From Escherichia coli (lineage in GTDB: Bacteria > Pseudomonadota > Gammaproteobacteria > Enterobacterales > Enterobacteriaceae), in the NCBI RefSeq assembly GCF_003018255.1, contig NZ_CP027440.1: DNA of 64,000 nucleotides; one strand, written 5' to 3'. The first letter of the stretch is position 1. Each line of letters starts with the position of its first letter. Below, one piece after another: positions 35,122 through 39,893 of the stretch. Both the position numbers and the translations under genes were made by a program. Under the pieces are notes generated by a model, which worked only from the letters and a program-made list of their open reading frames with translations, was not told the origin of the DNA and searched no databases.

Positions 35122-38134
<3,013 letters not shown>

Positions 38135-38971
38135 ATGACCGTATTACATAGTGTGGATTTTTTTCCGTCTGGTAACGCGTCCGTGGCGATAGAACCCCGG
38201 CTCCCGCAGGCGGATTTTCCTGAACATCATCATGATTTTCATGAAATTGTGATTGTCGAACATGGCACGGGTATTCATGTGTTTAATGGGCAGCCCTATA
38301 CCATCACCGGTGGCACGGTCTGTTTCGTACGCGATCATGATCGGCATCTGTATGAACATACCGATAATCTGTGTCTGACCAATGTGCTGTATCGCTCGCC
38401 GGATCGATTTCAGTTTCTCGCCGGGCTGAATCAGTTGCTGCCACAAGAGCAGGATGGGCAGTATCCGTCTCACTGGCGCGTTAACCACAGCGTGTTGCAG
38501 CAGGTGCGACAGCTGGTTGCACAGATGGAACAGCAGGAAGAGGAAAATGATTTACCCTCGACCGCCAGTCGCGAGATCTTATTTATGCAATTACTGCTCT
38601 TGCTGCGTAAAAGCAGTTTGCAGGAGAACCTGGAAAACAGCGCGTCACGTCTCAACTTGCTTCTGGCCTGGCTGGAGGACCATTTTGCCGATGAGGTGAA
38701 TTGGGATGCCGTGGCGGATCTATTTTCTCTTTCGCTGCGTACGCTACATCGGCAGCTTAAGCAGCAAACGGGACTGACGCCTCAGCGTTACCTGAACCGC
38801 CTGCGACTGATGAAAGCCCGACATCTGCTACGCCACAGCGAGGCCAGCGTTACTGACATCGCCTATCGCTGCGGATTCAGCGACAGTAACCACTTTTCGA
38901 CGCTTTTTCGCCGAGAGTTTAACTGGTCACCGCGTGATATTCGCCAGGGACGGGATGGCTTTCTGCAATAA
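38135..38971 (+). CDS. rhaS: AraC-family activator RhaS, 278 aa
   Basis: ORF-track peptide [44 protein letters not shown]... Confidence 0.93.
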
Positions 38972-39044
38972 CGCGAATCTACTCAACGTATTTGTACGCC
39001 ATATTGCGAATAATCAACTTCGTTCTCTGGCCGAGGTAGCCACG

Positions 39045-39893
39045 GTGGCGCATCAGTTAAAACTTCTCAAAGATGATTTTTTTGCCAGCGACCAGCAGGC
39101 AGTCGCTGTGGCTGACCGTTATCCGCAAGATGTCTTTGCTGAACATACACATGATTTTTGTGAGCTGGTAATTGTCTGGCGCGGTAATGGTCTGCATGTA
39201 CTCAACGATCGCCCTTATCGCATTACCCGTGGCGATCTCTTTTACATTCATGCTGACGATAAACACTCCTACGCTTCCGTTAACGATCTGGTTTTGCAGA
39301 ATATTATTTATTGCCCGGAGCGGCTGAAGCTGAATCTTGACTGGCAGGGGGCGATTCCGGGATTTAGTGCCAGCGCAGGGCAACCACACTGGCGCTTAGG
39401 TAGCGTGGGGATGGCGCAGGCGCGGCAGATTATCGGTCAGCTTGAGCATGAAAGTAGTCAGCATGTGCCGTTTGCTAACGAAATGGCAGAGTTGCTGTTC
39501 GGGCAGTTGGTGATGTTGCTGAATCGCCATCGTTACACCAGTGATTCGTTGCCGCCAACATCCAGCGAAACGTTGCTGGATAAGCTGATTACCCGGCTGG
39601 CGGCCAGCCTGAAAAGTCCCTTTGCGCTGGATAAATTTTGTGATGAGGCATCGTGCAGTGAGCGCGTTTTGCGTCAGCAATTTCGCCAGCAGACTGGAAT
39701 GACCATCAATCAATATCTGCGGCAGGTCAGAGTGTGTCATGCGCAATATCTTCTCCAGCATAGCCGCCTGTTAATCAGTGATATTTCAACCGAATGTGGC
39801 TTTGAAGATAGTAACTATTTTTCGGTAGTGTTTACCCGGGAAACCGGGATGACGCCCAGCCAGTGGCGTCATCTCAATTCGCAGAAAGATTAA
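39045..39893 (+). CDS. rhaR: AraC-family activator RhaR; GTG start giving 282 aa (alternative upstream starts at 38934 or 38955)
   Basis: ORF 38934..39893; GTG at 39045 precedes [17 protein letters not shown]; longer alternatives would overlap rhaS. Confidence 0.85.

Follow-up and report, generated by a model that had tools for sequence, protein, structure and literature searches.

Translation start of rhaR and organisation of the rhaS-rhaR junction in Escherichia coli

Where translation of rhaR begins is a question that the E. coli sequence raises by itself, since the reading frame of this regulator stays open upstream of the annotated gene and runs back into rhaS. We analysed a stretch of 64,000 nucleotides from contig NZ_CP027440.1 (the window), in which the open reading frames, together with the RefSeq annotation of an identical strain, give the gene order rhaB, rhaS, rhaR, rhaT; rhaB is divergent from rhaS-rhaR, and rhaT lies on the minus strand and converges on rhaR. 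A preliminary description of this DNA had set a GTG at 39045, giving a 282-aa protein that begins AHQLKLL after the initiator, against upstream starts that overlap rhaS, the longest of them at 38934. Both coordinates are exact against the open reading frame list and the sequence, and the codons that follow the GTG (GCG CAT CAG TTA AAA CTT CTC) do encode AHQLKLL. The ambiguity itself is real, both in the raw sequence and in public records, where versions of 282, 288 and 312 aa all carry the name RhaR.

Candidate starts and identity of the protein

The longest open reading frame in the rhaR frame spans 38934-39893, opens with GTG, encodes 319 aa and shares its first 38 nt with the 3' end of rhaS. 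The shorter interval 39045-39893 counts 849 nt, that is 282 aa and a stop codon. The features of the junction are as follows.

38135-38971, + strand: rhaS coding sequence, 278 aa, ATG start, stop TAA at 38969-38971 (open reading frame list and RefSeq annotation of the identical strain 104)
38934-38936, + strand: GTG, first start-type codon of the 319-aa open reading frame, 38 nt inside rhaS; Shine-Dalgarno energy -2.7 kcal/mol
38955-38957, + strand: ATG of the 312-aa version, spanning the rhaS codons GAT-GGC (Asp-Gly), 17-nt overlap with rhaS
38972-39044, + strand: rhaS-rhaR spacer, predicted to be untranslated, 73 nt from the rhaS stop to GTG 39045
39027, + strand: CTG of the 288-aa version, codon -6 relative to GTG 39045
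39033-39037, + strand: GAGGT, predicted Shine-Dalgarno sequence of rhaR, 7 nt upstream of the GTG; duplex energy -7.3 kcal/mol
39045-39047, + strand: GTG, predicted initiation codon of rhaR (282 aa) and start of the RefSeq coding sequence
39045-39893, + strand: rhaR coding sequence, 282 aa, AraC/XylS-family activator, stop TAA at 39891-39893, which overlaps the convergent rhaT stop by 4 nt

The window is 100% identical to the chromosome of E. coli strain 104. Its rhaS-rhaR stretch was matched in 5,419 of 5,426 complete genomes, with 98-99% identity to K-12-type strains. Relative to rhaR of E. coli K-12 (WP_001336056.1, 282 aa; PDB 5U93/5U9E), the GTG start and the 73-nt spacer are the same and the proteins are 98.6% identical, with S/N, V/M and I/V in the N-terminal domain among the few substitutions; the junctions differ only by an A/T change at 38981.

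The identity of the protein and its N-terminal boundary were then read from independent anchors. Two NCBIfam equivalog models of RhaR matched above their cut-offs (NF010025, 573.1 bits against 525; NF010027, 564.2 bits against 384). Both models have 282 positions, and positions 2-281/282 are matched by residues 39-318/319 of the 319-aa frame, so that model position 1 corresponds to GTG 39045 and residues 1-37 are left unmatched. When the 319-aa frame was searched against Pfam, an AraC_binding domain (59-189), HTH_18 (236-312) and HTH_AraC were found, which is the architecture of RhaR: a cupin-type AraC sugar-binding domain followed by a C-terminal double helix-turn-helix. The deposited RhaR N-terminal domain (PDB 5U93) starts MAHQLKLL and was crystallised without any extension, indicating that this domain is complete from the GTG start. 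The DFF motif shared with the paralogue RhaS is preceded by 7 residues in RhaS and by 10 in a 282-aa RhaR, and would be preceded by 40 in a 312-aa form. RhaR orthologues in a large protein collection are overwhelmingly 282 aa long, and RefSeq/PGAP places the start at 39045 (282 aa) in every E. coli record inspected.

Comparison of rhaS-rhaR junctions across Enterobacteriaceae

To compare junctions, one genome per species was scanned, which yielded 80 loci with RhaR orthologues (70-98% identity); about 30 genera of enterobacteria are represented. In each locus, tblastn was used to find the homologue of codon GTG 39045, and the junction was then read; together with the window this makes 81 junctions, all from Enterobacteriaceae. 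The homologous codon is a start codon in 78 of the 81 junctions (GTG in 68 and ATG in 10), and in the remaining three, from two Superficieibacter and a metagenome-assembled genome, GTG stands one codon downstream. This conserved start lies 71-155 nt past the rhaS stop in all 80 junctions compared, and GAGGT or GGAG is found 5-8 nt before it in nearly all loci. Pairing of the rhaR Shine-Dalgarno sequence with the 16S rRNA tail reached -5.1 kcal/mol or better in 80/80 loci (median -8.8), as compared to 16% of random in-frame positions inside rhaR at -5 kcal/mol or better. No upstream start codon was positionally conserved among the 80 junctions.

The position at which coding constraint begins could be read from 57 junctions anchored on the start. 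From codon 2 onward, column entropy at the three codon positions was 0.30, 0.23 and 1.09 bits; over the 69 nt upstream of the start it was 1.47, 1.43 and 1.37 bits. Codon periodicity is thus present from codon 2 and absent upstream, which argues that coding-type constraint switches on exactly at the codon of GTG 39045.

In 71 of the 80 junctions, a stop within the spacer closes the upstream frame, and in nearly all species the rhaR frame is interrupted 1-24 codons upstream; in 39 junctions the stop is the TGA contained in a TGAGGT Shine-Dalgarno sequence. Conservation of the upstream frame, the check proposed in the preliminary description, therefore clearly favours GTG 39045, the start which that description had implicitly preferred and which the comparison across enterobacterial junctions supports. 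Of the three frames, that of rhaR traverses the spacer without a stop in the fewest junctions (9/80, the other two 21/80 and 38/80), and 32% of mononucleotide shuffles of the 73-nt E. coli spacer lack an in-frame stop; taken together, these values make the open extension in E. coli no more than would be expected by chance. The nearest non-coli Escherichia of the set (L004, 93% RhaR identity) has the in-frame TGA of TGAGGT and a spacer 1 nt shorter than that of E. coli. The homologous E. coli triplet is CGA (39032-39034), and an additional base, located past the Shine-Dalgarno sequence and ahead of the start, puts it out of frame as well. In Escherichia sp. MOD1-EC7003, the frame is open from the equivalent of ATG 38955, as in E. 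coli. When the E. coli genome set was searched with the divergent Escherichia junction for a closer lineage, none was found.

Spacers of 71-74 nt are found in 57 of 80 junctions, and the others measure 79-155 nt; modulo 3, the lengths fall evenly into the three classes (27/27/26). Inserts of up to ~80 nt were found in the spacers of Salmonella, Citrobacter and Klebsiella indica, those of Salmonella and Citrobacter being REP-like. Within E. coli, the spacers of 8 strains hold 5 variable sites, of which 2 would be synonymous and 3 non-synonymous in the rhaR frame, a polymorphism too sparse for a selection test. From these comparisons, the segment 38972-39044 reads as an untranslated intercistronic spacer which by chance lacks an in-frame stop in E. 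coli, and 38934-38971 is the rhaS 3' end read in another frame. The long upstream frame as a whole thus appears as a chance extension confined to E. coli and its closest clade.

Rival starts and initiation of rhaR

Altogether, rhaR is very probably translated from GTG 39045-39047 by means of its own GAGGT, giving a 282-aa protein, and the 111-nt open frame 38934-39044 would be non-coding for RhaR. This assignment is made because positional conservation, the Shine-Dalgarno sequence, the coding signature, the closed upstream frame, the curated anchors, RefSeq and the literature all point to the same codon. As for the literature, the rhaR start was described as almost exclusively non-ATG across 10,643 E. 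coli genomes (PMC11445065), in agreement with the GTG start seen here. That study groups rhaR with lacI, cra and mlc as carbohydrate regulators with non-ATG starts, and its functional test concerned lacI only; the GTG found in 68/81 rhaR junctions fits this group, although ten species in our comparison use ATG at the homologous codon.

The most serious competitor is ATG 38955, as the main or an additional start in E. coli, which would yield a 312-aa protein with a 30-residue extension whose translation is coupled to rhaS termination 14-17 nt downstream. Both E. coli and Escherichia sp. MOD1-EC7003 do have an open frame from this codon, ATG is stronger than GTG as a start, and the overlap with the end of rhaS might in principle permit re-initiation. 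The 312-aa form is also named RhaR on at least 1000 public contigs, and RhaR is reportedly numbered as a protein of 312 residues in the first publication of the sequence (1987) and in mutational work that followed. A G-rich stretch upstream of the ATG can pair at -7.8 kcal/mol if spacing is ignored, but the properly spaced Shine-Dalgarno sequence is weak (AGGG, -4.2 kcal/mol). Moreover, the rhaS codons GAT-GGC, when read out of frame, account for the ATG, and the variants found in the overlap are synonymous in rhaS but non-synonymous in the extension (one at 38959 changes Ala to Val). Nothing comparable to the extension occurs outside E. coli and its closest clade. Most junctions, that of the nearest Escherichia relative among them, have a closed frame, codon periodicity is absent upstream of GTG 39045, and an N-terminal domain of RhaR that begins at the GTG is able to fold and crystallise. 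We consider initiation at ATG 38955 very unlikely on this evidence.

The two other candidates fare worse. GTG 38934 is the mechanical start of the longest open reading frame, and this is what speaks for a 319-aa protein; however, the codon lacks a Shine-Dalgarno sequence (-2.7 kcal/mol) and sits 38 nt within rhaS, other genera do not conserve it, none of the public records inspected uses it, and every argument against the 312-aa form applies to it equally, so that its chance of being the start is negligible. Codon -6 (39027) owes its candidacy to 288-aa RhaR records that begin MAEVATVA or MVEVATVA, in Shigella dysenteriae and E. coli. In the window this codon is a CTG without a Shine-Dalgarno sequence (+0.1 kcal/mol), its use would put the conserved GAGGT inside the coding sequence, and it is not a conserved start in other species, which leaves a 288-aa product extremely improbable. 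A model of dual in-frame starts with two proteoforms was judged unlikely on the same grounds as ATG 38955 (frame closed in 71/80 junctions, no upstream periodicity, no conserved upstream start); a minor longer RhaR product may exist beside the 282-aa form.

The choice of start also shapes the junction, as the preliminary description had pointed out: with GTG 39045 there is a conserved spacer of ~72 nt and no stop-start overlap at all. On this gene model, rhaS and rhaR would be two cistrons of one operon ~73 nt apart, and the length of the spacer together with the presence of a dedicated Shine-Dalgarno sequence suggests that ribosomes load de novo at the rhaR start, independently of any stop-start overlap. 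The pair shares with coupled overlapping cistrons (ATGA/TAATG type) that the two genes are adjacent in one operon, and the ATG 38955 reading would create a 17-nt overlap; it differs from them in that it keeps a 71-74-nt spacer (longer with REP inserts) and a separate rhaR Shine-Dalgarno sequence, and has no conserved overlap. An overlapping, translationally coupled pair was therefore rejected, given that the conserved start lies 71-155 nt past the rhaS stop and that overlapping starts occur only in the E. coli lineage. Coupling of rhaS translation to the rhaR start by RNA structure was likewise rejected: the E. coli junction folds no better than its shuffles (z = -0.22), RNAalifold predicted zero consensus pairs across 31 genera, and the junction has no Rfam match.

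Initiation signals of the two genes are of unequal strength. The rhaS start has an ATG and an AGGAGG Shine-Dalgarno sequence with a duplex energy of -10.3 kcal/mol, as compared to GTG and GAGGT (-7.3 kcal/mol) for rhaR, and rhaR output would accordingly be predicted to stay below that of rhaS. These weaker signals fit the published lower level of RhaR, a passage of a review stating that RhaS is expressed above RhaR owing to Shine-Dalgarno differences (PMC5566544, citing Wickstrum et al.).

What remains is the state of the public records. The exact K-12 sequences of 282 and 312 aa are each found on at least 1000 contigs, both named RhaR, and 288-aa versions are also present; among the database entries of our comparison, P0002 and P0122 are 312-aa forms. 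The 312-aa and 288-aa records are over-extensions, and the ambiguity is one of annotation, not of biology. They resemble the 'erroneous initiation' records produced by gene callers that prefer the longest frame or an ATG, and form a textbook case in which a chance stop-free stretch precedes a non-ATG start and an upstream ATG is chosen. The GTG 39045 gene model is already known, and the question is an ordinary, settled one of annotation in a well-studied operon.

A conserved spacer element and the significance of the junction

Separately from the start-codon question, the spacer contains a conserved pair of motifs.

38972-38987, no strand assigned: imperfect palindrome CGCGA-N6-TCAAC, directly after the rhaS stop
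39009-39014, + strand: AATAAT hexamer, hypothetical -10 element, 5/6 matches to TATAAT, 29 nt from the palindrome centre

In other genera, the palindrome takes the form CGCGA-N6-TCACC with flanks GTAA...GTTTT. Directly past the rhaS stop, GTAACG(C/A/G)GA-N6-TCA(C/A)CG followed by a T-run was found in 75 of 80 junctions, and in 71 of 80 the hexamer (A/G)ATAAT stands at 29-30 nt from the centre of the palindrome. Palindrome and hexamer columns hardly vary, whereas entropy averages 1.23 bits at the 4-fold degenerate sites of rhaR, and the G/C positions of the palindrome at +/-2 and +/-4 are kept. The spacing between the two motifs is retained even where inserts shift the pair 46-112 nt from the rhaR start, which argues against a local translational enhancer.

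Several known kinds of element were considered and rejected. As an RNA hairpin or terminator, the palindrome with its T-run is too weak (median -1.5 kcal/mol), and no intrinsic terminator was found in the E. coli junction. The element is unlike the conserved promoter motif upstream of rhaS (TCTTGAAAAAnnGAC ... GTCnAAAAATTTAAGG), which speaks against a RhaR/RhaS operator. It is not a good CRP site either, the match to the consensus being at background level: relative to TGTGA-N6-TCACA, the E. coli palindrome CGCGA-N6-TCAAC has 4 mismatches in 10 positions, and the TCACC form of other genera has 3, which is chance level, since sites with at most 3 mismatches number 184 in the window against 224 expected. 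The CRP targets obtained by genomic SELEX include rhaB, rhaS and rhaT-sodA and nothing between rhaS and rhaR (PMC3105977).

A generic sigma-70 scan of the E. coli junction found no promoter. The geometry of palindrome and hexamer would fit an activator site at -41.5 or -42.5 relative to a transcription start set by the putative -10. It is therefore conceivable, though on balance improbable, that the module GTAACGCGA-N6-TCA(C/A)CGTTTT with (A/G)ATAAT combines a protein-binding site with the -10 element of an internal, activator-dependent promoter, as the motif pattern would allow. Were this the case, transcription would be predicted to start near 39021-39022, and rhaR would be expressed independently of rhaS, supplying basal RhaR to start the rhamnose cascade.

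The practical value of settling the start is small, as it confirms the 282-aa, GTG-initiated RhaR of RefSeq and PDB. The choice nevertheless bears on RhaR residue numbering, on the design of rhaSR expression cassettes and on models of RhaS:RhaR stoichiometry, which would rest on independent and weaker initiation of rhaR, not on overlap coupling. The conserved spacer element, for its part, offers a cheap lead on how basal RhaR may be supplied.

A conserved module in the rhaS-rhaR spacer

The junction between rhaS and rhaR was compared across 80 species-level loci (L003-L082), and a module of a palindrome and a hexamer was found in the homologous part of these junctions:

38969-39014, conserved spacer module (palindrome plus hexamer)

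The palindrome, GTAACGCGA-N6-TCA(C/A)CGTTTT, adjoins the rhaS stop codon on its 3' side in 75 of the 80 junctions, and an (A/G)ATAAT hexamer lies 29-30 nt from the palindrome centre in 71. The columns of this module are near-invariant, as compared with 1.23 bits at fourfold degenerate sites. The spacing within the module is unchanged even where REP-like inserts separate it from the rhaR start. Such inserts, or other strongly folding ones, are found in L005, L007, L010, L011, L075 and L079 (Salmonella, several Citrobacter species and Klebsiella indica), where the spacer is 137-155 nt long and has a minimum free energy over its whole length of -45 to -61 kcal/mol; in these loci the insert sits 3' of the conserved hexamer and 5' of the rhaR Shine-Dalgarno sequence. 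Judged from sequence, this geometry is compatible with a candidate activator site followed by a -10 element. When compared with CRP, the spacer palindrome matched no better than background level.

Copies of the pattern were also counted in the whole window, where AACGCGA-N6-TCAMCGTT with up to 3 mismatches gave 14 matches vs 4.0 expected from dinucleotide shuffles. Among the matches are the known strong CRP-type site (37954-37974) and, within rhaB, a copy with 2 mismatches (37469-37489, minus strand); the excess is probably an effect of codon composition.

RhaR records and the 3' end of rhaR

Some public protein records depart from the 282-aa RhaR. P0001, a 511-aa record from a Logan assembly, is a rhaS-rhaR fusion ORF (window equivalent about 38135-39893) in which a deletion in rhaS moves reading into the rhaR frame; because no stop interrupts this frame in E. 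coli over the 77 codons that precede the GTG, reading continues into RhaR. A third start, at codon -6, is used in some GenBank records of E. coli and Shigella dysenteriae (P0126 and P0131, 288 aa, with N-termini MAEVATVA or MVEVATVA); in the window this codon (39027) is CTG.

At its other end, rhaR converges on rhaT, and the two stop codons overlap within a TTAA (39890-39893), so that no space is left between the genes for an intergenic terminator:

39891-39893, plus strand, rhaR stop (TAA)
39890-39892, minus strand, rhaT stop (TTA on the plus strand)

Strain variants at the rhaR start

Two E. coli strains are altered next to the rhaR start. In NCTC9064 (L083, locus 1788-2538), IS1A replaces all DNA upstream of window-equivalent 39007; rhaS and the rhaBAD side are lost, fdhD is the new neighbour of rhaR, and 38 nt remain 5' of the GTG, from just before the AATAAT hexamer, with rhaR still annotated as intact. 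In the clinical isolate UID2309220036 (L086), a G-to-T change at 39035 converts the rhaR Shine-Dalgarno sequence from GAGGT to GATGT, which would be expected to weaken rhaR initiation.
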